A DNA stretch of 64,000 bases from a virus (IMGVR_UViG_3300045988_121635), one strand, 5' to 3'. Shown: positions 902-24,732, counted from the first letter of the stretch. The notes: generated by a model not told the origin, from the letters alone. A program made the numbers and translations.

Positions 902-1356
902 CTGCGGTTGTAGGTGGAACGGAGGTCGGAGCAGAGCCAGGACAGTTTATTGTGGAACGTAAAAAGAAAAAAGATGGAAAGAACAATACATTATATTTGG
1001 ATAAATTGGGTATCTTCTACAGGTTCGAAAAGTAGTAGACTAATAAGCAACAGGTCTATGCCGGTATCAGATGCCAAAGAGATGATATTAAGAACGAGTG
1101 CTAAAGAATTGCTTAAACACAGACCGAGTTGGTTAAAGGACTGTGTTCGTATTAGTGTAAGCGCACAGGATATTACGACCGGAGAGATCCTGTATAGAAG
1201 AACTATAAACATAAAGAAGAAGGAGGAAATAATATGAAAAAGGCATTTAAGATATTTTCTATTATGTTTGTCATAGAAATAGTGCTGATAGCTATTTTAG
1301 ATGCTATGGCGTAAGTGAGAAAAATTTCTTCATTAATTTTCTTATGCTTTAGACAG

Positions 1357-1386
1357 AATGCTCCCGTCTGCGAAGATCGGAGCATT
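1357..1386 (+). terminator. long hairpin with GNRA tetraloop (AATGCTCC-CG-TCT-GCGA-AGA-TC-GGAGCATT); loop motif GTCTGCGAAGAT shared with 7003-7030
   Basis: 8-bp outer stem + inner TCT/AGA stem + GCGA loop read directly. Confidence 0.5.
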
Positions 1387-1393
1387 TGCTTTA

Positions 1394-1438
1394 TGGGATT
1401 CATGGTGCGGTAGGCTGGTTCGATTCCGGCGATCTCAC
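1394..1438 (+). tRNA. tRNA-like element: canonical T-arm (GCTGG-TTCGATT-CCGGC) plus 7-bp acceptor-like stem (TGGGATT/GATCTCA); full cloverleaf not recoverable by eye; no encoded CCA
   Basis: GGTTCGATTCC T-loop motif; pairing checked manually; only 45 nt so could be a tRNA fragment/mini-helix or a longer tRNA I could not fold. Confidence 0.3.
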
Positions 1439-1461
1439 ACAACATTAAAATAGGGAAGAAC

Positions 1462-1866
1462 ATGTTAAAAGAAGAATTTGAAGAACTGATTAAAAGGGAG
1501 GTAAACGAAAATCAGTATAAAAACATAGAAACGGCATACGAGGCTTTGCCGGAGTATATGGATAAGATGTATTTAGCAAGTGCTATTTCAAATGATATTG
1601 GGAAAGCTATTAATGTCTTATCGTTTTTAGGATCGTATATAAGCGAGTTAATGGGTTCGATAATAATCGAAAGGCAAAAGGTGGAATCATGTGCCTATGA
1701 TTTAATAAATAAATCGCATGAGGAGGATGACTTGAAAGCAAGAGAGATTGCCGTGCGATTAATAGGAGAGAGGGAAACAGTGGCATACACAGTAAAAGAA
1801 GGGCTGCCATTGTGGGAACAAGATAAAAAGTTTATAATAGAATTAATGAAGGAGGAAAGAAAATGA
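1462..1866 (+). CDS. hypothetical protein
   Basis: ORF 134 aa; ATGA overlap with next gene. Confidence 0.55.
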   Translation: MLKEEFEELIKREVNENQYKNIETAYEALPEYMDKMYLASAISNDIGKAINVLSFLGSYISELMGSIIIERQKVESCAYDLINKSHEEDDLKAREIAVRLIGERETVAYTVKEGLPLWEQDKKFIIELMKEERK

Positions 1867-2204
1867 AAGATGGTATTACATTACATCCAGAACACGGATT
1901 GAATCCGTCTATAGAAGTCTGCATGATATGTGGCGAAGAGATGGGGATTGCTTTATTAGGGAATAACATCAAAGGGCAGGCGCCGCATCATATATGCACG
2001 GGAGAAATATGTGACAATTGCAAAAAGATAATAGATGACGGAGGTTGTTTTATTATCGAAGTCGAGGATGGATCAGATCAAAAGAATCCGTATCGTACAG
2101 GGAGATATTGCGCGATAAAGAAAGAAGCAGCAAAGAAAATACTTGGACAGGAACATAGTGTTGTGTACATGGAAAAGTCTGCATACAGTCAAATAATACC
2201 ATAA
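1863..2204 (+). CDS. hypothetical Cys-rich (Zn-binding?) protein
   Basis: ORF 113 aa; CxxC...CxxC pairs; ATGA overlap. Confidence 0.5.
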   Translation: MKDGITLHPEHGLNPSIEVCMICGEEMGIALLGNNIKGQAPHHICTGEICDNCKKIIDDGGCFIIEVEDGSDQKNPYRTGRYCAIKKEAAKKILGQEHSVVYMEKSAYSQIIP

Positions 2205-2218
2205 AAATAAAGAAGGAT

Positions 2219-2533
2219 ATGTTTACAAAAGAAGAGCGATTATTCATATGGAAAAAGGTATATGAGATGATTGATAGGTTAGAGGATGGGGAATACATAT
2301 GTGTTGCGTTAAGAAATGTAGTGTTTATGTATCTCAAAACACATAAAAATATATATGAGTTTCGTTCAGACGAAATGGTGAGAATATATTTCCCGGAATT
2401 GGAGGAGAAGATAAGTATGGCCACAGAACCAGAGGAAACAAGAACGTTTTATGGGTGGTTTGGTTGTCTTAGTCCAGAAACGAAGGAGGTGAGGCTGAAT
2501 ATTGTGAAAGATATTATAAAAGAATTAGAATAG
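2219..2533 (+). CDS. hypothetical protein
   Basis: ORF 104 aa. Confidence 0.45.
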   Translation: MFTKEERLFIWKKVYEMIDRLEDGEYICVALRNVVFMYLKTHKNIYEFRSDEMVRIYFPELEEKISMATEPEETRTFYGWFGCLSPETKEVRLNIVKDIIKELE

Positions 2534-2579
2534 TATTTTTGTTAATCTATTTTATTCATCAAATTAAGTTTTGGGTTTT

Positions 2580-2609
2580 GGCATGTCGGTTCGTGAGGAT
2601 AGACATGCC
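2580..2609 (+). terminator. hairpin GGCATGTC-(GGTTC-GTGA-GGATA)-GACATGCC with GNRA (GTGA) loop
   Basis: 8-bp stem read directly; followed by U-rich TATTTCTGTAT. Confidence 0.45.
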
Positions 2610-2625
2610 TATTTCTGTATCATAG

Positions 2626-2686
2626 AGGGATGACGCGGCGTGCCGGTGCGTATGTGCCGGTCCTGGTTCGATTCTGGGCATCTCAC
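2626..2686 (+). tRNA. tRNA-like element: T-arm (CCTGG-TTCGATT-CTGGG) + acceptor-like stem (AGGGATG/CATCTCA); D-arm not evident
   Basis: same T-loop and ATCTCACA 3' motif as 1394-1438; 6/7 acceptor pairs; internal CCGG...CCGG stem with 10-nt loop (non-canonical). Confidence 0.3.
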
Positions 2687-2706
2687 AAACAATAAAACAT
2701 AATTAT

Positions 2707-3641: not shown

Positions 3642-3651
3642 TATAATGCTT

Positions 3652-3770
3652 GACATACTCCCATCGCTAAAGCAAACGGGATTCTTGGATACAAACGTAC
3701 GGAACCCCCGGTTTTACAATCGTTGGAATCACCCGCACTTTCCAACTCGGAAATGCCCTTCCGAGGTCGC
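3652..3770 (-). mobile_element. orphan copy of IS200/IS605-family right end / TnpB-omegaRNA scaffold (no tnpB); ~85-90% identical to 12182-12300 and retains a decayed TnpB C-terminal coding remnant (RKGISELES...)
   Basis: TTGACATACTCCCATCGCTAAAGCAAA(C/T)GGGATTCTTGGATACAAACG... aligned by eye with the 3' end of the tnpB element at 12182; translation of minus strand gives RKGISELESAGDSND vs TnpB RKGISELESKSNSSDSN. Confidence 0.75.
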
Positions 3771-4917: not shown

Positions 4918-4944
4918 TTGTTAAACATAAGGCAGTAGTGGTGC

Positions 4945-5229
4945 GTGAGTATAGGTGCTGCCGTTAAAATATTTTATAAGATGAAAAAAGAAGAGATTCA
5001 AACTATTTTATACACAATCAAAGAAGGAGACAGTATTAAGATCAAAGTACAAGACAAAAGTGAAGAGATAAGACTGCGGGATCATGTAAGAAGAGTACAG
5101 AAATACGGATACAGGTTTTGTTTGTCTCATTTACATGATGGAATTTTCTATCTGGAGAAGTTGAAAGAAGGGGACAAGGATAAATACTATAGAGTAATAA
5201 ACAGAGGAAATGGAAAGACCGGAGTATAA
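4945..5229 (+). CDS. hypothetical protein
   Basis: ORF 94 aa. Confidence 0.4.
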   Translation: MSIGAAVKIFYKMKKEEIQTILYTIKEGDSIKIKVQDKSEEIRLRDHVRRVQKYGYRFCLSHLHDGIFYLEKLKEGDKDKYYRVINRGNGKTGV

Positions 5230-7002: not shown

Positions 7003-7038
7003 CGGCACTGGTCTGCGAAGATAGGTGCCGTTTTTTTT
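7003..7038 (+). terminator. intrinsic terminator: CGGCAC-(TGGTCT-GCGA-AGATAG)-GTGCCG + T8
   Basis: GC stem, GNRA loop, 8-T run read directly; same loop motif as 1357-1386. Confidence 0.75.
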
Positions 7039-7059
7039 ATTCAAGAAAGGAGGACAAAG

Positions 7060-7311
7060 ATGGAGAAAAGAGGCAAGAAGATGCCTTACGAGGTAGTCAT
7101 ACAGGAAAGAAAAAGAGTGGATTTGTACGGTAACGTAGTGTATTATATCCATTGGTTTGATAAATATGGGTACAATATCACAAACGAATGGAAATTCTGG
7201 AGCAAGGGTCCGAAAAAGAAATACGATAGAGTTAATCGTTATCTAACGGATAGTTGGTTGAAGGAATACTGTGGGAATAACGATTTAAAGATAAGGAGAA
7301 TAAAGGAATGA
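7060..7311 (+). CDS. hypothetical basic protein
   Basis: ORF 83 aa; ATGA overlap. Confidence 0.45.
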   Translation: MEKRGKKMPYEVVIQERKRVDLYGNVVYYIHWFDKYGYNITNEWKFWSKGPKKKYDRVNRYLTDSWLKEYCGNNDLKIRRIKE

Positions 7312-11762: not shown

Positions 11763-12202
11763 GAAATACATTCAGTTATCATTTTTTAATAACATATCTT
11801 ATGAAAACACAAGAAGAATATGCCCATGAAATTGACGAAATCGTTCGCCGGGATGTAGAGAGCTGCCAGAGTGACTGGTTTATAATCGACAAGGAGATAT
11901 TTATGCAGCCAGAGAATAAGAACAAGGCATTTATTTTGGGAACAAGAAAGACCGGGTGCGATATGATCGTACTTGGAGGTACTAATTGCAGTGGATCCAA
12001 TATGGATTGGCTTTTCGGTTGCCTTGGCAATGAAAACTTCTATGTATGCCAGCCAGTATCTTTCTATAAATCACAACAAGAAATCCAGAAAGTAAATCCG
12101 CTTTATGCTTTCAAGGTGGCCACTGCTTATTTTAGAGAACAAGGGAAGGTTCCGGTATTTGAAGATAATAACTGTAGATTATTGACATACTCCCATCGCT
12201 AA
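11744..12202 (+). CDS. hypothetical protein whose last 7 codons (LLTYSHR*) are supplied by the IS right end, so its 3' end is altered by the tnpB insertion
   Basis: stop codon TAA lies inside TTGACATACTCCCATCGCTAA IS terminus. Confidence 0.45.
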   Translation: MLEFLLRNTFSYHFLITYLMKTQEEYAHEIDEIVRRDVESCQSDWFIIDKEIFMQPENKNKAFILGTRKTGCDMIVLGGTNCSGSNMDWLFGCLGNENFYVCQPVSFYKSQQEIQKVNPLYAFKVATAYFREQGKVPVFEDNNCRLLTYSHR

Positions 12203-12380
12203 AGCAAATGGGATTCTTGGATACAAACGCAAGAAACCCCGATGTTGCTATCGCTGGAATTACTCTTGCTCTCCAATTCGGAAATGCCCTTCCGAAGTAT
12301 ATTACGGGCTGCAAGAATATCACGGTCGTTAATTGCGCCGCACGCTGGGCACACCCACGTGCGGTCGCGTAACGACAGTC
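12182..12380 (-). ncRNA. predicted omegaRNA (reRNA) scaffold overlapping tnpB 3' end and IS right end; guide would continue into flank below 12182 (minus strand reads ...GGGAGUAUGUCAA|UAAUCUACAGUU...)
   Basis: established TnpB architecture; terminal hairpin TCCCAT-C-GC-TAAA-GC-AA-ATGGGA at 12190-12212 seen; extent inferred. Confidence 0.5.
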
Positions 12381-13374
12381 CTTTATTAATGCAGCCACAT
12401 TCACAAGTTTTGGAAGAAGGATACCATTTGTCAATCTTGTGTATCGTTACTCCATATTTTGAAGCAACATACGTAAGTTTATCAATAAAAGAAGAATGAC
12501 TGAGATCGGAAACTTTCTTTCCCCACAAACGTTTCATTCCTTCAATGCTTAGATCTTCAATGAAAATATAATCATATTGTTTGCATAACTGATGAGCTAA
12601 TTTCCATTGAAAATCTGATCGAAGATCGTTTATTTTACGATACGTTTGTTGAAGTTCAAACAGTTTCCTTCTTCTATTATTGGATCCTTTCTTTGCATTA
12701 GAAAGCCGTTTGTTTAGTTTTCTAATCTTGTTTTGATATTGTTTGAAGAATAGAGGAGAATCAATTTTGCTACCATCGCTTTTAGTTAAATAAGTTTTTA
12801 GTCCAAAATCCAATCCTATAGATGCACCATCATGTGTCTTTCTATAAGAGCTTATAGGATTATGATCTGTAACTACAATCAAACTAAAACGTGAACAGGT
12901 TTCTCTAACTATTCTAATTTGTTTAACATTACCTTCGTAGCCTCTACTGTATGAGAATCTAAATCGTTTGTTTCCTTTGTTAATTGTTAGACAATTCCCA
13001 TTTAGGGTAAACCCACCTTGTTTGAAAACAAAAGAGTTGAATTTCTCCGGTGATTTAAACTTAGGAGGTCGTTTAGCTAACTTCTTAAAGAAACGATTAT
13101 AAGATTCATCAAGACGTTCAAGTATTTCTTGTGTTGTTTGAGAATGAAGAAGATTTCTTTTAATTCTTTTGGCAAAATACTTCTTCATTTTGCCAACTGA
13201 GATATATTTCCCAAACAGTTTGTGATACCTACGTTGTAGAGCTAACGCATGATTCCATACAAAACAACATTCACGAAGCATCTTGTCAAGATACTTCGTT
13301 TTCCTGGAATGGTATATGTTGTATTTGTATGAAATCATTTTTTTTATCTGTAATTTTGATTCAAAATTAATCAA
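12199..13374 (-). CDS. tnpB: TnpB (OrfB) RNA-guided endonuclease of IS200/IS605 family: RuvC-like motifs (IGLDFG, IFIEDLS, NDRDILAARNI) and CxxC...CPACG zinc finger
   Basis: 391-aa ORF; motif order D...E...Zn-finger...D typical of TnpB/Cas12 ancestors. Confidence 0.9.
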   Translation of the reverse strand: MINFESKLQIKKMISYKYNIYHSRKTKYLDKMLRECCFVWNHALALQRRYHKLFGKYISVGKMKKYFAKRIKRNLLHSQTTQEILERLDESYNRFFKKLAKRPPKFKSPEKFNSFVFKQGGFTLNGNCLTINKGNKRFRFSYSRGYEGNVKQIRIVRETCSRFSLIVVTDHNPISSYRKTHDGASIGLDFGLKTYLTKSDGSKIDSPLFFKQYQNKIRKLNKRLSNAKKGSNNRRRKLFELQQTYRKINDLRSDFQWKLAHQLCKQYDYIFIEDLSIEGMKRLWGKKVSDLSHSSFIDKLTYVASKYGVTIHKIDKWYPSSKTCECGCINKGLSLRDRTWVCPACGAINDRDILAARNILRKGISELESKSNSSDSNIGVSCVCIQESHLL

Positions 13375-13852: not shown

Positions 13853-14914
13853 ATGAACAATTCAATGGTCGCTCACTTGTGGGCTCATGAACAAGAAGAA
13901 TCAGCATCAGGGAGCAATTTCTTCTTTGAAGGTACAAGTATTTATTCTTATGGGCATCACTTTGAAGTCGGGAGAATAGTAAAAAACAAACAAGGGAAGA
14001 AAGCATACCTGATAAATGAAGATTATTATTCTGCTACCACGAGCAAACATCAATGCTATGTTCGTAATGCGATACCAACTTGGGCAATGGTTTTCAGTGT
14101 AGGGGATAATATATCGGATACTGGTAATATGAGGTTTGTTGCCAGCAAACTGGAATCAATTAAGAAGTCTATTGAAAAATACAAAAGAGCTAAAACAGAA
14201 TTATCTTATACAGATATTTGGGGCGCTTTTGGGAATATGATGGATTACATTCAGTTCTTTAACATGGGGACTGCTAAGAGTATCCTTAAAAAGAGTGCTA
14301 ATGATTGGCTTGGAACCAATCATGAATTATCCAAGAGCGGAGATAGTATCAAGCGTAAGCACGTACATGAATTAAAACGCATCTTTCAAATTTTATTAGA
14401 TCATCAAGGATTAAAAGTGTTAGGGACCGTAAATGTGATTGTTGATGAAGTTTGCGGGGAAGGTACATGGATTAAGTATTCAGAAAGATCTGAAAGATGG
14501 AGAAAGGGTGAGGAAGAAAGAGAAAGAATAAAATTAGAGAGATTAAGAAAGGAAGAAGAAGCCCGTTACAAGGATTTTGATGAAAAACTGGAAGAGTGGA
14601 AGTCAGGAGAAATCAATTTCTTGAATACACCTTTCTATATTCCTGGTGAAAAACCTAACGCCTGGATTCGTATAAAAGGAAATATTATTGAGACAAGTAA
14701 ACAGATAAAGATTGGAATAGCAGAAGCCAGAAAACTGTGGCGGGCTGTGTCGGCAATGCACCGGGGCGCCGAGTTTCGGCACGGTCTGGTGGAGGACATC
14801 ACCGGTCACCAGTGGAGTCTAAATCGGTACGAAAACGATTTGCTAACCGCTGGATGTCATAGGATAGCATATAACGAAATGGAGAGAATAGCAAAACAAC
14901 TGGGATGGGTGTAA
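13853..14914 (+). CDS. hypothetical protein with charged coiled-coil segment (EERERIKLERLRKEEEARYKD)
   Basis: ORF 353 aa. Confidence 0.6.
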   Translation: MNNSMVAHLWAHEQEESASGSNFFFEGTSIYSYGHHFEVGRIVKNKQGKKAYLINEDYYSATTSKHQCYVRNAIPTWAMVFSVGDNISDTGNMRFVASKLESIKKSIEKYKRAKTELSYTDIWGAFGNMMDYIQFFNMGTAKSILKKSANDWLGTNHELSKSGDSIKRKHVHELKRIFQILLDHQGLKVLGTVNVIVDEVCGEGTWIKYSERSERWRKGEEERERIKLERLRKEEEARYKDFDEKLEEWKSGEINFLNTPFYIPGEKPNAWIRIKGNIIETSKQIKIGIAEARKLWRAVSAMHRGAEFRHGLVEDITGHQWSLNRYENDLLTAGCHRIAYNEMERIAKQLGWV

Positions 14915-15699
14915 GTAGTCCATCTTATTTTATTAATCACATAATTAAAAACAAGAAAAATATGAAAAATCTAATTATTGTTCCGTTTGATTTAAATACG
15001 GCGAGAAAAATTAAAAGCGAAGAAATAGAAGGTTCGGTATTAATTGATAATATTGAGATAGAATTTGTATATGAGTCGAAAGACCGCGCCGGTCCTTATA
15101 ATTTACTTTTTGTAAGAAAAGATGGATATGGAATAAGTGCTATATATGCCAACACGGAAGGTTGTACTATTGGCGGCACCACTCTGGAATTGAAAGTAGA
15201 GGCTGGGGCGTATTTCAAGAAAGGAGATGTATTAACAAGCACTAATGGATATCAATTCATATATGATGGAATTATTACCAAAGGGATAATGGGATGTATA
15301 TGCGGAATGGCAACATTTGGAGATATTGGGTTTGATTACAAATTATGGACTCATGTGTATGACGAAGATAAAAAACGGCATGTAAGAAAGGCTATAGAAG
15401 AAGAGAAGAAATTTTTAGCAGAAAAGATTATAAAAGTCGAAGACAGTAGAAAAATAGATATAATAAAACGATATTTAAGTGAATATGAGTATCTATTAGA
15501 TGAGATGCCGAAACGTGACTTCAAACCATTTGAACGAGTGCTGGTAAGAAGAACTAACCAAGAGAGGTGGAAATTGCATCTATTTTCCAGAGAATCAGTA
15601 GGAGATAATAAATACGAATGCTTAGGAGGGGTAGGATTTAGTCAGTGTATCCCATACGAAGGGAACGAACATCTTTTAGGAACCAATAAAAACAAATAA
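14905..15699 (+). CDS. hypothetical protein; N-terminal domain paralogous to 15704..16054 N-terminus, C-terminal ~60 aa paralogous to 16150..16434 C-terminus (FKPFxxVLVR...EGNEHLLGTNKN)
   Basis: alignment by eye of translated ORFs. Confidence 0.6.
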   Translation: MGVSSPSYFINHIIKNKKNMKNLIIVPFDLNTARKIKSEEIEGSVLIDNIEIEFVYESKDRAGPYNLLFVRKDGYGISAIYANTEGCTIGGTTLELKVEAGAYFKKGDVLTSTNGYQFIYDGIITKGIMGCICGMATFGDIGFDYKLWTHVYDEDKKRHVRKAIEEEKKFLAEKIIKVEDSRKIDIIKRYLSEYEYLLDEMPKRDFKPFERVLVRRTNQERWKLHLFSRESVGDNKYECLGGVGFSQCIPYEGNEHLLGTNKNK

Positions 15700-15703
15700 G
15701 ATT

Positions 15704-16054
15704 ATGGAATATAAAATGGTAACAATCCCGTTTGATTTAGAAACGGCGAAAAAAATAAACATAGGGGAAATAGCAGGTCGTATTGTGACAGAGAAAGGAC
15801 AAAATAGAGCAGAAATCGTATATGAAGACAATTCGTCAAGTTGTCCGTTATTGGTTGTAATTCATTCGATTTCTGTATCGGCAGACTGGTTTTCTGCTAC
15901 AGGAAAAGCACTTAGCAGCGCAAATCGACTCCTTCTTGAAGTTCCAGAATATATTACATTTAAAGATGGAGAGGTGTTAAGTAATAAAGATGGTAGCTAT
16001 ATCTTTATTTTAAATACACATGGGAAATATTTAACGTCTTTTATGCCTCTTTAA
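15704..16054 (+). CDS. hypothetical protein, paralog of N-terminal domain of 14905..15699 (IVPFDLNTARKI / VTIPFDLETAKKI)
   Basis: by-eye alignment. Confidence 0.5.
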   Translation: MEYKMVTIPFDLETAKKINIGEIAGRIVTEKGQNRAEIVYEDNSSSCPLLVVIHSISVSADWFSATGKALSSANRLLLEVPEYITFKDGEVLSNKDGSYIFILNTHGKYLTSFMPL

Positions 16055-16149
16055 ATCAAAAAGGTATTCTTAAAATAGAAGATGGTTTATCTGCTTGGGA
16101 AAATCAGATAGAAAAATACAGATTTGCCACTGAGTCCGAAAGACAAAAG

Positions 16150-16434
16150 TTGGTTGACGCATTAAAGGCAAGCAAAGAACCTGAAGCTAAAGAGTATCTG
16201 AAACGCTTCTTCGGGATTGAAGAAAAACCGAAATATGAGTTTAAGCCGTTTGATAAAGTGCTGGTAAGAAAAGAAGGAAATAAAAAATGGAATATCAGTT
16301 TGTTTGCAAGGGAAATTGTGGACGATTATAATGGATTGCCTTATAAGTACGAATGTTCCAATGGAACATTATGGGATTATTGTATTCATTTTGAGGGTAA
16401 CGAACATCTTTTAGGAACTAATAAAAATGGATAA
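16150..16434 (+). CDS. hypothetical protein, paralog of C-terminal domain of 14905..15699
   Basis: shared FKPFDKVLVRK...HFEGNEHLLGTNKNG. Confidence 0.5.
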   Translation: MVDALKASKEPEAKEYLKRFFGIEEKPKYEFKPFDKVLVRKEGNKKWNISLFAREIVDDYNGLPYKYECSNGTLWDYCIHFEGNEHLLGTNKNG

Positions 16435-17113: not shown

Positions 17114-17776
17114 ATGAATAATTTTGTAATAGATACTCCAGATAATTTCTGGCAAATAAGATGGCTTGACAAGTATATGGAAGGCCACAAAGGATTCATA
17201 GCTGGTGGATGTTTTAAGAATATTCTTTCCGGAGAAAAAGTAAAAGACATTGATATTTTCTTTGAAAGCGAAAGCAATTTTCAGGAAGCTATTGATTTGT
17301 TCAATGATGAAAAACATCAGAAAGAAGGATGGAAATTTAAGTACAGAAATGAGAAGGTATGTGCGTTCCAGAAAGAGGGAGAAAAGGTATGGATAGAGTT
17401 CATAGAGTCAGAGTTTGGAAAGCCAGAAGAGATTCTTAGGAGCTTCGATTTTACTGTGGCAAAAATGGCCTACTACAAGGAGCCCAAATACGAAGAAAAA
17501 GAAGATGATTATTTTCCATTCTCATCTGCAAGTATAGTAGCATACGAATATAAGCTACTCTATCATGAGAAATTCTTCGAACATCTTCATATGAAGAGGC
17601 TGGTAATTGACGAAAATATTCCTTTTCCGGTAAGCACATGGGAGCGCTCATATCGGTATAAAGGATATGGTTACAATATGTGCCGGGAGACAAAGAAAAA
17701 ACTTCTACAGGCTCTTAAAGGTGTAAATGTAGAGGAGGAAGATGTATCTTTGTACACTACTGGAGGATGGGATTAA
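17114..17776 (+). CDS. putative nucleotidyltransferase of Pol-beta superfamily; motif GGCFKNILSGEKVKDIDIFF resembles the poly(A) polymerase/CCA-adding enzyme head motif GGxVRDxLLGxxxKDxDxxT
   Basis: motif recognised by eye; 220 aa is short for a full CCA enzyme. Confidence 0.45.
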   Translation: MNNFVIDTPDNFWQIRWLDKYMEGHKGFIAGGCFKNILSGEKVKDIDIFFESESNFQEAIDLFNDEKHQKEGWKFKYRNEKVCAFQKEGEKVWIEFIESEFGKPEEILRSFDFTVAKMAYYKEPKYEEKEDDYFPFSSASIVAYEYKLLYHEKFFEHLHMKRLVIDENIPFPVSTWERSYRYKGYGYNMCRETKKKLLQALKGVNVEEEDVSLYTTGGWD

Positions 17777-22789: not shown

Positions 22790-23259
22790 TGATAAGAAGT
22801 CATGGCTTATGCCAGGCTTGCAGGAGCAAAGAGTTGACTCCGAAGAAAAAAGACAGAATTACATCCATTAAAAACAGCAGCAAGAAGAAAAAGTTAGAGA
22901 ACCCGGATTTATCCGGGTTTTTTCGTCTTATGTTGGAGGAGTTGAGTACTATTCGAATGTCTATGACCGGTAAGGCTATTCATTTTCCTACAGTATGTAA
23001 CGTATGTCACATACTTCCGAAAAGGATATATAAGTCGGTTGCTACTTGCAGGGATAATATAGTTTTCCTTCATGAATCGGAGCATACGGTATTCGACATG
23101 TATCTTGACCGGATGGAATTTGATAAACTTGAAACAGAATTTCCTTTTGTGTGGAAGTATGCGGTAAAGAAGGTACTGGATATGGAAAGCAGGGGAATGA
23201 TTAAAGAAAGAGGTAGATTAATTATTGAAATAATTGACAGATATGAGAAAACTTTATAA
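22744..23259 (+). CDS. hypothetical Zn-ribbon protein (CEKCG...CQAC)
   Basis: ORF 171 aa. Confidence 0.45.
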   Translation: MEKKLYVCEKCGRKVMIRSHGLCQACRSKELTPKKKDRITSIKNSSKKKKLENPDLSGFFRLMLEELSTIRMSMTGKAIHFPTVCNVCHILPKRIYKSVATCRDNIVFLHESEHTVFDMYLDRMEFDKLETEFPFVWKYAVKKVLDMESRGMIKERGRLIIEIIDRYEKTL

Positions 23260-23419
23260 AATAAGAATAGAAGCTGACGATGAAACTATCTTTTATGCTC
23301 ACATACGAAGAGAGAGTTATGGCAAGGATATAGCTATCGCAGTGAAAGATAGAGATAAAGATGAAGTGGAAACAGTGTTACATTGTATTAAAGAAGAATT
23401 GATTAGAGGAAGATCATGA
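23234..23419 (+). CDS. hypothetical protein
   Basis: ORF 61 aa; ATGA overlap. Confidence 0.35.
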   Translation: MTDMRKLYKIRIEADDETIFYAHIRRESYGKDIAIAVKDRDKDEVETVLHCIKEELIRGRS

Positions 23420-24732
23420 AAGAGAAAATAAAAATATTGACAGATTTAGGGTTTGCGCCTATGGTAGAAGGAGAAGGAAATACGTTGTTTAGAATGAACG
23501 ATGTTGTGATGTCGGTGTCAGATCCTAACCAAACACCAGAGCAGTTGAAGAAGGAGGTTATGTCTTTAATAAAGAACAGAGACATAGCGGAAAGAGGTGG
23601 ACAGGTTCCAGTAGTTGAAGAGCCGGCGCCTGAGCCAGAGCAGGCCCAGAAGGAGGAACCGGAAGCTCCGGCGGAGGAAGCCGCTCCTAACCCTGGAGAA
23701 GAGGATTCGAATCCGTTTACAGAAAATCAGGAAACGTTAGAGCCGTTTTATATCTGTGATGAGTTAAAGAAGATCGAGACTCCCAAATTCGTAAGATTGA
23801 CATTAGACGGTAATCGTTTTTATGTAAGAAAGATGGACGATGGGACAGCCAAGATATATGCTTCGGTAACAACCATGATCAGAGACGGATTCGTAGATGA
23901 CAAGACGGCTCTTCAAGAATGGAGACAGGAGATGAGGATGATTGGTCGCAATCCGGAAGAAGTATCAGAATATGATGCAGATAAAGGAACGATCATGCAC
24001 TACCTATACGGATTGTACTTGACGGGTAGAGATATGGTCTTAAATCGAAGTTTTATAGTTAAGACAGTGCAAGAAGGCAAGCTTAAAATATCAAAAAAGA
24101 ATCTTGACAAATTCTTTGGTAGCATAGATGATCTTGACGATATGATTGTCAGAGTTATGAAGTTTGCTAAATTTTGTTCAGAGTATAAGGTTAAGCCGAT
24201 GATGATTGAAAGAATATTGTCATTAGAAGATTATTTGGTAGCTACGCCGATAGATGCGATGGTTAAAATGACATTCAAATACAAAGAAGAAGGTTATTTT
24301 GGAGCCGTGTATCAAAGGGCTACGGGGCAGTTCAAAAAAGGAGATCCGAAGAAGGAAGTGAGAGAAGTGGAGAAAGAAGAGATTGTTATCTTAGATTTTA
24401 AATCAGGTGACATACGAAATGAACATGCTTTTCAATTGGAGGCTGAAAGGAGAATGGTTAAAAACTGGTACGGAATTGATGCACGTATTATGAATTTTTC
24501 TCCAAAAAGCACGAACAGTAAAGGTTATACGCTAAAGGAATGGTCTGATAAAAATGCTGCTATGGAGAAGGCAGACTGTGTATTCCAACAAGGGATGTTG
24601 AATCATATCAGAAAAGATAAGAGGTTTAAAGTGAGAAAAGGAGTGCTGAATATCAATAAGCCGTACAATGAAGAGGATCATATTGTCGTATATGATATTG
24701 CTGAGGAAATGTCTAAAAGATTCGTAATATGA
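23416..24732 (+). CDS. hypothetical protein with Pro/Glu/Ala-rich linker and a possible PD-(D/E)xK-like nuclease core (EIVILDFKSGD)
   Basis: ORF 438 aa; nuclease assignment weak. Confidence 0.5.
   Translation: MKEKIKILTDLGFAPMVEGEGNTLFRMNDVVMSVSDPNQTPEQLKKEVMSLIKNRDIAERGGQVPVVEEPAPEPEQAQKEEPEAPAEEAAPNPGEEDSNPFTENQETLEPFYICDELKKIETPKFVRLTLDGNRFYVRKMDDGTAKIYASVTTMIRDGFVDDKTALQEWRQEMRMIGRNPEEVSEYDADKGTIMHYLYGLYLTGRDMVLNRSFIVKTVQEGKLKISKKNLDKFFGSIDDLDDMIVRVMKFAKFCSEYKVKPMMIERILSLEDYLVATPIDAMVKMTFKYKEEGYFGAVYQRATGQFKKGDPKKEVREVEKEEIVILDFKSGDIRNEHAFQLEAERRMVKNWYGIDARIMNFSPKSTNSKGYTLKEWSDKNAAMEKADCVFQQGMLNHIRKDKRFKVRKGVLNINKPYNEEDHIVVYDIAEEMSKRFVI

Follow-up and report, generated by a model that had tools for sequence, protein, structure and literature searches.

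For RNase P, RNase Z, the CCA-adding enzyme and AlaRS, the minimal unit is an acceptor stem set on a T stem-loop, 11–12 bp in length. Mini-helix substrates of this kind were reportedly the work of McClain, Guerrier-Takada and Altman in 1987 and of Francklyn and Schimmel in 1989. With MALAT1 mascRNA and the tRNA-like element of MEN-beta, from vertebrate nuclear long non-coding RNAs, an RNase P cut makes the mature 3′ end, and RNase Z and CCA addition finish the small RNA. The PeSL cassettes of T4-type phages are said, after Arbiol et al. in 2010, to combine a promoter with terminator-like stem-loops. Plant mitochondrial t-elements have a non-canonical cloverleaf fold with the motif GGTTCRANYCC; at mRNA ends they are substrates of RNase P and RNase Z, and a non-templated C or CA is added (Forner et al. 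2007, PMC1920247). A further tRNA mimic is YrlA, a Y RNA that is encoded by some phages (Chen et al. 2014, PMC4201824; Rfam RF02553).

The window analysed here is a 64,000-nt stretch of an epsilon crAss-like phage from the human gut, with 94.6% identity to crAssE-Sib over its first 8 kb. It contains two plus-strand elements that mimic the top half of a tRNA: E1 at 1394–1438 (covariance model match 59.3 bits) and E2, which carries an inserted hairpin, at 2626–2686 (74.1 bits). The best match of the model outside these two, over the window, is 12.9 bits. E1 is made up of the acceptor 5′ strand TGGGATT (1394–1400), a variable 13-nt linker (1401–1413) with an invariant GG at 1404–1405, the T arm GCTGG/TTCGATT/CCGGC (1414–1430) and the acceptor 3′ strand GATCTCA (1431–1437), with a conserved C at 1438. 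E2 has the same order of parts, with the acceptor 5′ strand AGGGATG (2626–2632), a 9-nt linker (2633–2641) with GG at 2637–2638, the inserted 8-bp hairpin with a GTAT (GUAU) loop (2642–2661), the T arm CCTGG/TTCGATT/CTGGG (2662–2678), the acceptor 3′ strand CATCTCA (2679–2685) and a conserved C at 2686. In both, a canonical T arm is stacked on an acceptor-like stem of 6–7 bp, and the D arm and anticodon arm are absent. The 5-bp T stem with its GTTCRANYC loop is contiguous with the acceptor 3′ strand, and the t-element motif GGTTCRANYCC is matched at 11/11 positions in E1 (GGTTCGATTCC) and 10/11 in E2 (GGTTCGATTCT). The 10-mer GGTTCGATTC has two exact copies in the window where 0.11 would be expected, a number reached by one shuffle in 100.

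A third paralogue, E0, was found outside the window, immediately ahead of its start. The ORF before E0 has its stop codon 5 nt past the E0 acceptor 5′ strand, so the last codons of that ORF overlap the strand. All three elements have the same orientation and stand between same-strand ORFs, with the conserved C 20–23 nt before an ATG, and CCA follows none of them. E2 and the majority of E0 copies have a mismatch at pair 1-72.

Much of this had been recognised in an initial annotation of the region. The T arms with acceptor-like 3′ strands that it reported are present in E1 and E2, as are the two 5′ acceptor partners, and we likewise obtained no full cloverleaf, D arm or 7-nt anticodon loop. Its remark that CCA is not encoded also holds; six real tRNA genes of a related phage lack CCA as well. 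The ~35-nt motif described as common to both elements is a true similarity, but only at 80% in an ungapped alignment, and the degenerate consensus drawn from it matches E1 within three mismatches but has no match at E2, owing to a 1-nt indel between the two tails (CACAACATTAAAA versus CAAACAATAAAA). The end of this motif had been put at 20–25 nt before the ATG; the actual distance is 9–11 nt, and it is the acceptor end that lies 21–24 nt away. On the plus strand, E1 is followed by the nearly invariant, A/C-rich tail ACAACATTAAAA (1439–1450) within a leader of 1439–1461 that runs to the ATG at 1462, and E2 by the A-rich tail AAACAATAAAA (2687–2697) within a leader of 2687–2706 that runs to the ATG at 2707.

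Searches with tRNA finders and RNA families were negative. ARAGORN called 0 tRNA and 0 tmRNA genes in the whole window, Rfam gave nothing at gathering thresholds, and RF00005 had no match even at E values up to 10. In E-value mode over 1200–2800, Rfam returned just a 17-nt T-arm match to a tmRNA model (9.8 bits) and one chance match. As neither tool calls anything, E1 and E2 are not tRNA genes.

The GNRA hairpins that had been noted ahead of the elements are there, both on the plus strand. The E1 hairpin at 1356–1387 has 9 bp, a 1×1 internal loop, 4 bp and a GCGA tetraloop, followed by UUUGCUUUAU; the E2 hairpin at 2580–2609 has 8 bp, a 1×1 internal loop, 4 bp and a GTGA tetraloop, followed by UAUUUCUGUAU. 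In related genomes, three pairs of the E1 hairpin are exchanged for others (A1358-U1385 for G-C, U1359-A1384 for C-G and G1366·U1377 for A-U), and variable positions 2598, 2603 and 2608 of the E2 hairpin stay paired via G·U wobbles, on the plus strand only. Hairpins of like build were seen at 4931–4962 and 7003–7030, with eight Ts after the latter. The E1 hairpin is putatively terminator-like, protective of the 3′ end of the upstream RNA, or both; a terminator scan called neither the E1 nor the E2 hairpin, and the U tracts behind them are interrupted. Each hairpin is preceded by an AT-rich plus-strand spacer. That of E1 (1315–1355) has 0–6% mismatch per position in ~109 contigs, which is lower than in the adjacent coding sequence, and it aligns with the matching spacer of E2 (2534–2579; 0–2% mismatch per position in 100 contigs).

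Pairing within E1 and E2 was counted over 57 distinct sequences, using register-controlled alignments padded with N. Stem cells were paired in 95% of cases, as opposed to 31–51% with the partners slid; with E0 added, the figures were 91.9% and 31–59% (31 distinct acceptor plus T-arm sequences). Two-sided changes occur at 7/12 pairs across E0, E1 and E2, and the covariation score of the three is 0.561 versus 0.266 in shuffles, with 0/500 shuffles reaching the observed value. Most of these two-sided changes are differences among the three paralogues, and independent substitutions are few because all copies belong to one closely related phage lineage. Double changes also occur among copies of a single element: G-C to A-U at pair 52-62 of E1, where an A·C intermediate was seen too; C-G to U-A in the E0 T stem in five copies; and G-C to A-U at pair 4-69 of E2 in a single contig. 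The T stem is paired in 98.7–99.3% of cells (99.3% for E2 alone) and the E2 insert hairpin in 98.5%, and many of the G·U pairs of the elements are possible on the gene strand only. From 12 distinct E1 sequences RNAalifold returned exactly the acceptor stem plus the T arm. Covariation in E2 by itself was not significant against shuffles, and the variation is nearly as compatible with an alternative fold in which the E2 linker pairs with the T-stem 3′ strand. Single-sequence folding energy was no better than that of shuffles for the E1 core (z −0.2) and E2 core (z −0.1), with z of −0.6 for E0 and of −1.9 (E1) and −1.2 (E2) when the upstream hairpins were included. As judged from the alignments, E0, E1 and E2 are a plus-strand RNA structure, and the pairing pattern speaks against a promoter or att site.

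Coding readings of the same stretches were dropped. About half of the relatives have lost the ATG of an ORF at 1358 (+), the start of an ORF at 1203–1463 (−) falls within sequence missing from more than half of the genomes, and E2 contains indels of 1 and 14 nt. The longer of these takes 14 nt of the E2 insert hairpin from two contigs (L039 and L071) and leaves an E1-like form. The GenBank record of the closest relative has a hypothetical protein annotated over E2.

We counted 215 copies of the elements in ~110 related gut-phage contigs, and they are conserved in at least 120 IMG/VR stretches. Both E1 and E2 are present at 90 of the loci retrieved, and the other five with enough downstream sequence retain an E1-type element, which in one of them (L046) is an E1/E2 recombinant. 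Upstream of E1, a small plus-strand ORF (1234–1314) for a hydrophobic peptide of 26 aa, MKKAFKIFSIMFVIEIVLIAILDAMA, identical in 68 of ~80 equal-length homologues, moves with the E1 hairpin and E1 as a block; the block, 1240–1450, is common to ~106–110 related contigs and the flanks on both sides are not. Alignment coverage falls from ~109 to 47 contigs at 1450, and relatives mostly diverge right after this point, because the other contigs carry a different downstream gene. Upstream of E2, a plus-strand ORF of 104 aa with no family match (2219–2533) travels with the E2 hairpin and E2, and coverage is 97–106 contigs from 2480, over the end of this ORF and the E2 block, to ~2699. It then falls from ~100 to 35 contigs at 2700, most relatives diverging right after ~2699, and the alternative gene after E2 is a homologue of the window's ORF 3117. 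Pfam and PHROG scans of the neighbouring small proteins gave no function, and ORF 2219–2533 had no match in either. By these coverage profiles, gene cassettes are exchanged immediately 3′ of each element, which makes the elements exact markers of early-gene cassette exchange junctions and bears on the diversification of these phages.

We propose, with a probability of about one half, that the elements are tRNA-like punctuation signals for RNase P and RNase Z in multi-gene transcripts. The initial annotation had offered tRNA-derived elements as one of its readings, and of this the T-arm mini-helix or processing-signal version fits best, while its attP-core version is not supported. E0, E1 and E2 are plus-strand RNA elements modelled on the upper half of a tRNA, set between the cistrons of an early same-strand gene array, in which a single-stranded linker with a GG, or a dispensable hairpin, takes the place of the D and anticodon arms and the T loop reads UUCGAUU. 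Host RNase P would cut at the 5′ edge of the mimic, and the upstream message would then end in the GNRA-capped hairpin; the base ahead of the predicted RNase P site is A or G, not the preferred U. RNase Z acts where CCA is not encoded, which is the situation at E0, E1 and E2, and would cut past the conserved C, giving the downstream message an unstructured A-rich leader of ~20–23 nt. A tRNA-like RNA of ~45–64 nt would be released, with CCA addition possible. On this proposal gene cassettes could be swapped directly after the mimic because the mimic and its tail would form a portable unit.

The structure, strand, conservation, intergenic position and mosaic junctions of the elements are read directly from the sequences compared here; cleavage by RNase P and RNase Z and the product fates described are inferred. 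From the position of the elements in the DNA we infer that they are co-transcribed with the flanking genes, and a scan detected no promoter or terminator of their own. Against a processing role, the downstream message might be made less stable, not helped, by a cut so close to its start codon. In the crAss-like phage phi14:2, early promoters have no common motif and two early intergenic regions yield abundant stable non-coding RNAs of unexplained function (bioRxiv 10.1101/2020.03.07.982082). The early genes of the sole crAss-like phage studied rely on a virion RNA polymerase and have no recognisable promoters.

Instead of the message ends, the released small RNAs could be the point: alanine-type top-half mimics, akin to the tRNA-like domain of tmRNA, that once CCA is added would be bound or charged by AlaRS and act as decoys towards EF-Tu, SmpB or a tRNA-targeting host defence, with processing no more than the route to them. 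We regard this alternative as unlikely. E2 shares its acceptor stem, GGGGAUG/CAUCUC, with natural alanine acceptors, and metagenomic genes ending in GGTTCGATTC-NNNN-CATCTCCA (n = 75) are 59 tmRNA and 16 tRNA-Ala genes, 74 of which start with GGGGATG or GGGGGTG. The G3·U70 pair is kept in 53/57 distinct E1/E2 sequences, where other wobbles flip freely; rare variants, however, have A-U or G-C at this position, the base after the stem is C as opposed to A73 in alanine acceptors, and E0 has G3-C70 with a different stem. Because of this last difference alanine identity is not a property of the family and was dropped as its defining trait; across the alignment, what E0, E1 and E2 have in common is shape, not identity. 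Resemblance to tmRNA goes further, in that E1 and E2 lack a D stem, have an invariant GG at nt 11–12 (E1) and 12–13 (E2), as do 56/59 tmRNAs, and the inserted hairpin of E2 is located where tmRNA helix P2 emerges, but the tmRNA D-loop motif UUCGAC, present in 59/59 tmRNAs compared, is absent in both. Free RNAs would also sit poorly with the lack of a visible promoter or terminator, and we noticed no SmpB-like or AlaRS-like gene nearby. A more specific form, in which free CCA-tailed alanine-type tRNA top halves are in effect tmRNA tRNA-like domains without the message part, charged by AlaRS, engaging EF-Tu and SmpB or an immune nuclease that targets tRNA, and acting as decoys against ribosome rescue or tRNA-attacking immunity early in infection, seems decidedly improbable.

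The same alternative gains from other tRNA-related genes of the lineage. One is a CCA-enzyme-like nucleotidyltransferase; crAssE-Sib further encodes Rsr, a YrlA-like candidate and a polynucleotide kinase/phosphatase. In crAssE-Sib the YrlA-like candidate adjoins rsr, at a locus elsewhere in the genome than the elements, and RF02553 has no match in 1200–2800 of the window at E values up to 10. The nucleotidyltransferase had been called in the initial annotation at ORF 17114–17776, and a structure search bears this out, with a head like that of class II tRNA nucleotidyltransferases. Sequence searches with this ORF (PDB, Pfam, NCBIfam) gave nothing useful, and the AlphaFold model, which had a pLDDT of 38.8 from the single sequence, was remodelled with an alignment. 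A link between this enzyme and E1/E2 is plausible but weak; the same family is found in 34–40 kb Streptococcus thermophilus phage records and in other unrelated phages.

It is also conceivable, if rather unlikely, that the elements are not cleavage signals but stay on the downstream message as a structured 5′ domain, giving protection from 5′ decay or translational control by a tRNA-binding protein. Spacing to the start codon is constant at 20–29 nt across the three paralogues and alternative cassettes, and the tail is conserved. Linkage, however, is to the upstream gene and hairpin, the downstream gene differs in more than half of the genomes, and nothing in these data points to a binding protein.

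That the elements are what remains of tRNA or tmRNA genes in decay and have no RNA role today, being visible only through a young lineage and repeat-promoted recombination, is distinctly unlikely in our view. The distribution is narrow, as this would predict: four further IMG/VR scans that excluded the common variants found nothing outside the lineage and only two more copies (mildly divergent E2) plus one chance match, and a tblastn search of GenBank phages with two neighbouring proteins as queries gave crAssE-Sib and virtually nothing else. In the same direction, the linker of E1 is hypervariable, E2 can do without its insert hairpin, and copies of E2 differ in the length of the G-run at the 5′ edge. 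On the other hand, the three paralogues differ at most stem positions and all still pair, and the T loop is invariant in nearly all 215 copies, as is nearly the case for the tail, against variation of up to 84% at neighbouring linker positions. Of the loci with enough flank, 95/95 keep at least one copy, although they were retrieved with the element's own sequence.

A signal at the DNA level is very improbable, whether it served the host or phage RNA polymerase as promoter or operator or was an attP-like site derived from the 3′ end of a host tRNA or tmRNA gene. Cassettes do switch exactly at the 3′ edge of the motif, an E1/E2 recombinant exists, and there is one sigma-70-like match (9/12) at 2675–2703, but E1 has no corresponding promoter-like site, and compensatory and strand-specific wobble changes are unexpected for a DNA site. 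A scan for sigma-70-type promoters showed no enrichment over shuffles and no site common to the copies, and no Bacteroides-type −33/−7 pair (TTTG...TAnnTTTG) was found in or next to the elements. The suggestion that a promoter motif simply mimics a T arm is not supported, with stems kept by compensatory and wobble changes and promoter scans that yielded nothing consistent. As for an att site, a search of 185,579 bacterial species genomes found the 23-mer at the 3′ end of the elements in none of their tRNA or tmRNA genes. The pattern GGTTCGATTCNNNNNATCTCACA had 10 matches in these genomes, nine of which were chance matches not called as tRNA or tmRNA, and the only homologous match was a phage-like 3.9-kb contig. 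An att core would need no 5′ acceptor strand, and the attP core that had been suggested is unsupported because no bacterial tRNA or tmRNA 3′ end matches and both acceptor strands are kept. The crAssE-Sib paper reports no evidence of integration (PMC11054128).

That these are functional, highly atypical decoding tRNAs, as had also been suggested, is barely credible, and the anatomy all but rules it out: the T arm and acceptor stem are canonical and the E2 insert could be the remnant of an anticodon arm, but neither ARAGORN nor Rfam calls a tRNA, a D arm and a 7-nt anticodon loop are missing, E1 has just its 13-nt variable linker between the arms, and the loop of the E2 hairpin has 4 nt, with part of this hairpin deleted in two contigs.

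The human gut commonly harbours epsilon crAss-like phages, whose early gene expression is a black box. If the punctuation reading is true, these phages borrow host tRNA-processing enzymes to set message ends, a concrete and testable mechanism for which the other known examples are in organelles and in a small number of eukaryotic long non-coding RNAs. For annotation, such elements are overlooked by tRNA finders and Rfam.

Compared with the systems described above, the elements resemble plant mitochondrial t-elements in their T-arm motif, incomplete cloverleaf, predicted position at mRNA ends within a longer transcript and lack of CCA. The t-elements belong to an organelle, whereas E1 and E2 are from a dsDNA phage, are cut down to the acceptor stem and T arm, and come with a GNRA hairpin on the upstream side and an A-rich tail that is conserved; cleavage at E1 and E2 is predicted. 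MALAT1 mascRNA and MEN-beta have a similar layout, with a stabilising 3′ structure followed directly by a tRNA-like element, but these are eukaryotic, full cloverleaf-like RNAs with a triple-helix stabiliser and no downstream cistron. The tRNA-like domain of tmRNA likewise keeps only the upper half of a tRNA, with no D stem and a GG 11–13 nt from the 5′ end; like E2 it has a helix between the D-loop analogue and the T arm, and like E1 and E2, though not E0, an alanine-type acceptor stem with G3·U70. tmRNA differs in its mRNA-like domain, pseudoknots and tag reading frame, none of which is found in E1 and E2 (45–61 nt), and in having UUCGAC, A73 and CCA, where E1 and E2 have a C after the stem and no encoded CCA. 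YrlA is circularly permuted, closed by a Ro-binding stem and located beside rsr, in contrast to the normal strand order of E1 and E2, which have no such stem. PeSLs share with E1 and E2 the repeated short motifs with stem-loops between small early genes, at cassette-shuffling junctions, but have no tRNA-like fold. The mini-helix substrates are laboratory constructs; E1 is in essence the same mini-helix plus a bulged linker, and a natural, conserved, intercistronic mini-helix in a phage would be new.

Both elements lie on the plus strand between early genes. E1 (1394-1438) runs from the 5′ strand UGGGAUU through a 13-nt linker and GCUGG-UUCGAUU-CCGGC to GAUCUCA and a C, and E2 (2626-2686) from AGGGAUG through a 9-nt linker, an 8-bp hairpin with a GUAU loop and CCUGG-UUCGAUU-CUGGG to CAUCUCA and a C. 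In each, a canonical T stem-loop runs straight into a 3′ strand that pairs with the upstream 5′ strand, and the fold reproduces the stacked acceptor stem and T arm found in a tRNA, minus the D arm and anticodon arm. A hairpin of 8-9 bp, a 1×1 internal loop, 4 bp and a GNRA loop stands 5′ of each element (plus strand, 1356-1387 for E1 and 2580-2609 for E2), and a conserved A/C-rich tail follows, then a start codon (1462 and 2707, respectively). A conserved 26-aa hydrophobic mini-ORF, MKKAFKIFSIMFVIEIVLIAILDAMA (1234-1314, plus strand), belongs to one block with E1 and its hairpin. Exact matches to the 10-mer GGTTCGATTC number two in the window vs 0.11 expected, and a covariance model of the element scored 74.1 and 59.3 bits at the E1 and E2 sites, the only two in the window, with the next best at 12.9 bits. 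The T-arm and acceptor-like elements after hairpins described in the initial annotation are therefore borne out. Ordinary tRNA genes, also considered there, are excluded by the anatomy together with the gene searches: ARAGORN found no tRNA or tmRNA gene in the window, and Rfam returned nothing at gathering thresholds and a 17-nt T-arm match only in permissive mode. Intergenic hairpins of the same build (7 bp, internal loop, 4 bp, GTGA/GCGA loop; folding z about −3) are also found on the plus strand at 4931-4962 and 7003-7030, the latter with eight Ts directly 3′ of it, and neither has a tRNA-like element on its 3′ side.

Over its first 8 kb, the window is 94.6% identical to phage crAssE-Sib (OR575929, 151 kb, human gut), an epsilon crAss-like phage (PMC11054128) whose record holds, elsewhere, six real tRNA genes (Cys, Arg, Gln, Met, Tyr and Lys), all six without an encoded CCA. 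The pattern GGTTCGATTCNGGNNATCTCACA matched at least 120 stretches in IMG/VR, and among the matches listed, blastn and parsing gave 215 copies (112 E1-type and 103 E2-type) in ~110 contigs. Among these listed matches, E1 was followed by E2 500-2200 nt away at 90 loci, and an E1-type element stood alone at five loci with sufficient downstream sequence, one of which (L046) is an E1/E2 recombinant. Divergent family members outside the lineage were not found in IMG/VR scans built to exclude common variants. The covariance model did find a third paralogue, E0, in crAssE-Sib (record 506-569; L132 569-506, minus strand; 20 bits, E = 5e-4 over 3 kb), oriented like E1 and E2 and lying ~2 kb upstream of E1, roughly 0.7 kb before window position 1. 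We counted 45 E0 copies (44 loci and the crAssE-Sib record), with 49 blastn matches. E0 reads UGGUUGU, ~32 nt, UCCGG-UUCGAUU-CCGGA, GCAACCU and C, with 23 nt before an AUG, and its acceptor stem differs from those of E1 and E2 (GGUUGU/GCAACC, with G3-C70). The upstream ORF's stop codon is 5 nt past the E0 acceptor 5′ strand, so its last codons overlap that strand, and no GNRA hairpin is found upstream of E0. Strong Shine-Dalgarno-like AAGGAGG sites occur at several early genes (1848-1865, 7045-7062), which would be unusual for a Bacteroidota host, and the sole match to the element in the genome collection was a 3.9-kb contig assigned to a Veillonella MAG, a binning that could simply be wrong; it may be worth re-examining which host this lineage infects.

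Variation among the copies argues for an RNA fold. In the register-controlled alignment of E1 and E2 (A3; 57 distinct sequences from the 215 copies), standard pairs filled 95.0% of stem cells vs 31-51% when the 3′ partners were slid by 1-3 columns, with 99.3% paired in the T stem, 98.5% in the E2 insert hairpin and 89.7% in the acceptor stem. With E0 added (A7; 31 distinct acceptor and T-arm sequences, linkers masked), 91.9% of cells were paired vs 31-59% when slid, and the covariation score was 0.561 vs 0.266 after shuffling, a value attained in 0 of 500 shuffles. Two-sided change was seen at 7 of 12 pairs in A7, though the genomes compared are close relatives, the events few and the two-sided changes mostly differences among paralogues. 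Within single paralogues, E1 pair 52-62 changes from G-C to A-U with an A·C intermediate also present, the E0 T stem changes from C-G to U-A in five copies, and E2 pair 4-69 changes from G-C to A-U in one contig (L016); in the hairpins 5′ of E1 and E2, A-U is replaced by G-C and U-A by C-G. Many G·U pairs are possible on the gene strand only, and RNAalifold on E1 alone gave exactly the acceptor stem and T arm. Covariation in E2 alone was not significant against shuffles, the E2 linker can pair with the T-stem 3′ strand in an alternative almost equally compatible with the variation, and single-sequence folding energies of the elements are unremarkable. Pair 1-72 is unpaired in E2 and most E0 copies, so that their stack counts 6+5 bp, compared with 7+5 bp in E1. 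Taking these together, we put the probability of a selected plus-strand tRNA-top-half structure at about 0.9.

The compensatory changes also disfavour a DNA site such as a promoter, one of the readings offered in the initial annotation; promoter-like sites are not enriched, none is common to the copies, and the elements hold no Bacteroides-type −33/−7 pair. An att-site origin, likewise suggested in the initial annotation, failed against 185,579 species genomes, where a 23-mer of the element was in no tRNA or tmRNA gene and the lone homologous match was the 3.9-kb Veillonella-binned contig, which is phage-like. Coding can be dismissed, as overlapping ORFs lose their starts or take frameshifting indels in relatives. 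One such ORF is annotated in OR575929 as a 52-aa hypothetical protein (WOZ57404.1, L001:2541-2699) over the E2 hairpin and E2; since frameshifting 1-nt and 14-nt indels occur there in relatives, this CDS is very probably spurious.

In sequence, the E2 acceptor stem is that of alanine acceptors. Among 75 metagenomic genes ending in GGTTCGATTC-NNNN-CATCTCCA, 59 were tmRNA and 16 tRNA-Ala, and 74 of the 75 started with GGGGATG or GGGGGTG. With G3·U70 kept in 53 of 57 distinct E1/E2 sequences, no D stem, and GG at nt 11-13 as in tmRNAs, E1 and E2 resemble the tRNA-like domain of tmRNA; however, they have no UUCGAC motif, A73, CCA or any message domain. The alanine-type G3·U70 is not found in E0, which has G3-C70 instead, and what the three paralogues have in common is shape, not alanine identity.

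The T loop and tail are almost invariant, as nearly are the AT-rich spacers 5′ of the hairpins (1315-1355 and 2534-2579). The E1 linker varies in up to 84% of genomes per position except for an invariant GG, and two contigs lack 14 nt of the E2 insert hairpin. Coverage by related genomes is ~100-110 contigs across each element and drops to 47 at 1450 and 35 at 2700. In the remaining genomes, a homologue of window ORF 1863 is joined directly after the E1 tail and one of window ORF 3117 after the E2 tail; the upstream partners are the hydrophobic mini-ORF and hairpin for E1 and a 104-aa ORF and hairpin for E2.

Other repeats were seen in the window. Three tandem non-coding 51-nt repeats (396-549; 63-73% identity to the first copy) lie near its start, just 3′ of two copies of the G+C-rich 14-mer CGGTAGGGCGTGGG (211-224, 329-342), and this region could be an origin, packaging signal or early-promoter region. 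A TnpB/Cas12f-like gene (12199-13374, minus strand; OrfB_IS605 and TNB domains) has 118 nt across its 3′ end (12182-12298) repeated at 3650-3767 with 79-93% identity, inside a 97-aa minus-strand ORF whose similarity to the TnpB C terminus is limited to 21 aa; the repeat is probably what is left of a second IS end or of its guide-RNA region. Paired 51-54-nt repeats at 14905-16434 (families D5, D9 and D10; 75-80% identity, 720-745 nt apart) seem to indicate tandem paralogous genes, and 42-47-nt direct repeats, 88-96% identical, in a minus-strand gene region (61352-61393/62033-62074 and 61987-62033/62603-62649) may be repeated regulatory sequences.

The window also encodes a 220-aa nucleotidyltransferase-like protein (17114-17776, plus strand) with motifs like the class II A and B motifs and no match in our local Pfam copy. 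Its AlphaFold model, built with a homologue alignment (pLDDT 75), retrieved class II tRNA nucleotidyltransferases or poly(A) polymerase as every one of its top 37 Foldseek matches in the PDB (best 1vfg, E = 8e-5), and the model matches the head domain only of the class II enzymes (A-adding, CCA-adding and poly(A) polymerase). Homologues occur widely among unrelated phages, for example in 34-40 kb records of Streptococcus thermophilus phages, and also in Bacteroides phages; the gene therefore does not point specifically to a connection with E1 and E2. Outside the window, a crAssE-Sib locus (record 72601-74725; L133:22601-22705 and 23091-24725) encodes a Ro60/Rsr protein, with tRNA-Tyr, tRNA-Lys and a YrlA-like Y RNA candidate (RF02553, 28.5 bits, E = 0.006, under the gathering score of 69) just upstream, so the lineage may carry tRNA mimics of another kind as well.

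RNase P, RNase Z and the CCA-adding enzyme all recognise the stack of acceptor stem and T arm as a unit. E0, E1 and E2 could thereby punctuate an early polycistronic transcript: RNase P cleavage would leave an upstream message ending in its own hairpin, and RNase Z cleavage after the conserved C, with no CCA next, would leave a ~20-23-nt leader on the next message. Processing is about an even bet as the main role; less probably, the RNA set free may act as a decoy or in some other way, or the elements may serve as the 5′ domain of the downstream message. By analogy, data from the crAss-like phage phi14:2 are compatible with processing, as its early promoters have no common motif and abundant stable RNAs of unknown function arise from two early intergenic regions (bioRxiv 10.1101/2020.03.07.982082). 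A full-text literature search gave no report of such an intercistronic element, and the crAssE-Sib paper (PMC11054128) does not mention them.

Among known systems, the closest natural analogues are the t-elements of plant mitochondria, with MALAT1 mascRNA as a second. The defining motif of t-elements is GGTTCRANYCC; they lie at mRNA ends, where RNase P and RNase Z cut them, and receive C/CA tails (PMC1920247). Phage tRNA mimics and tRNA-like processing elements are already known kinds; what appears undescribed is a minimal intercistronic form, present in three copies in a crAss-like phage, that also marks cassette junctions.
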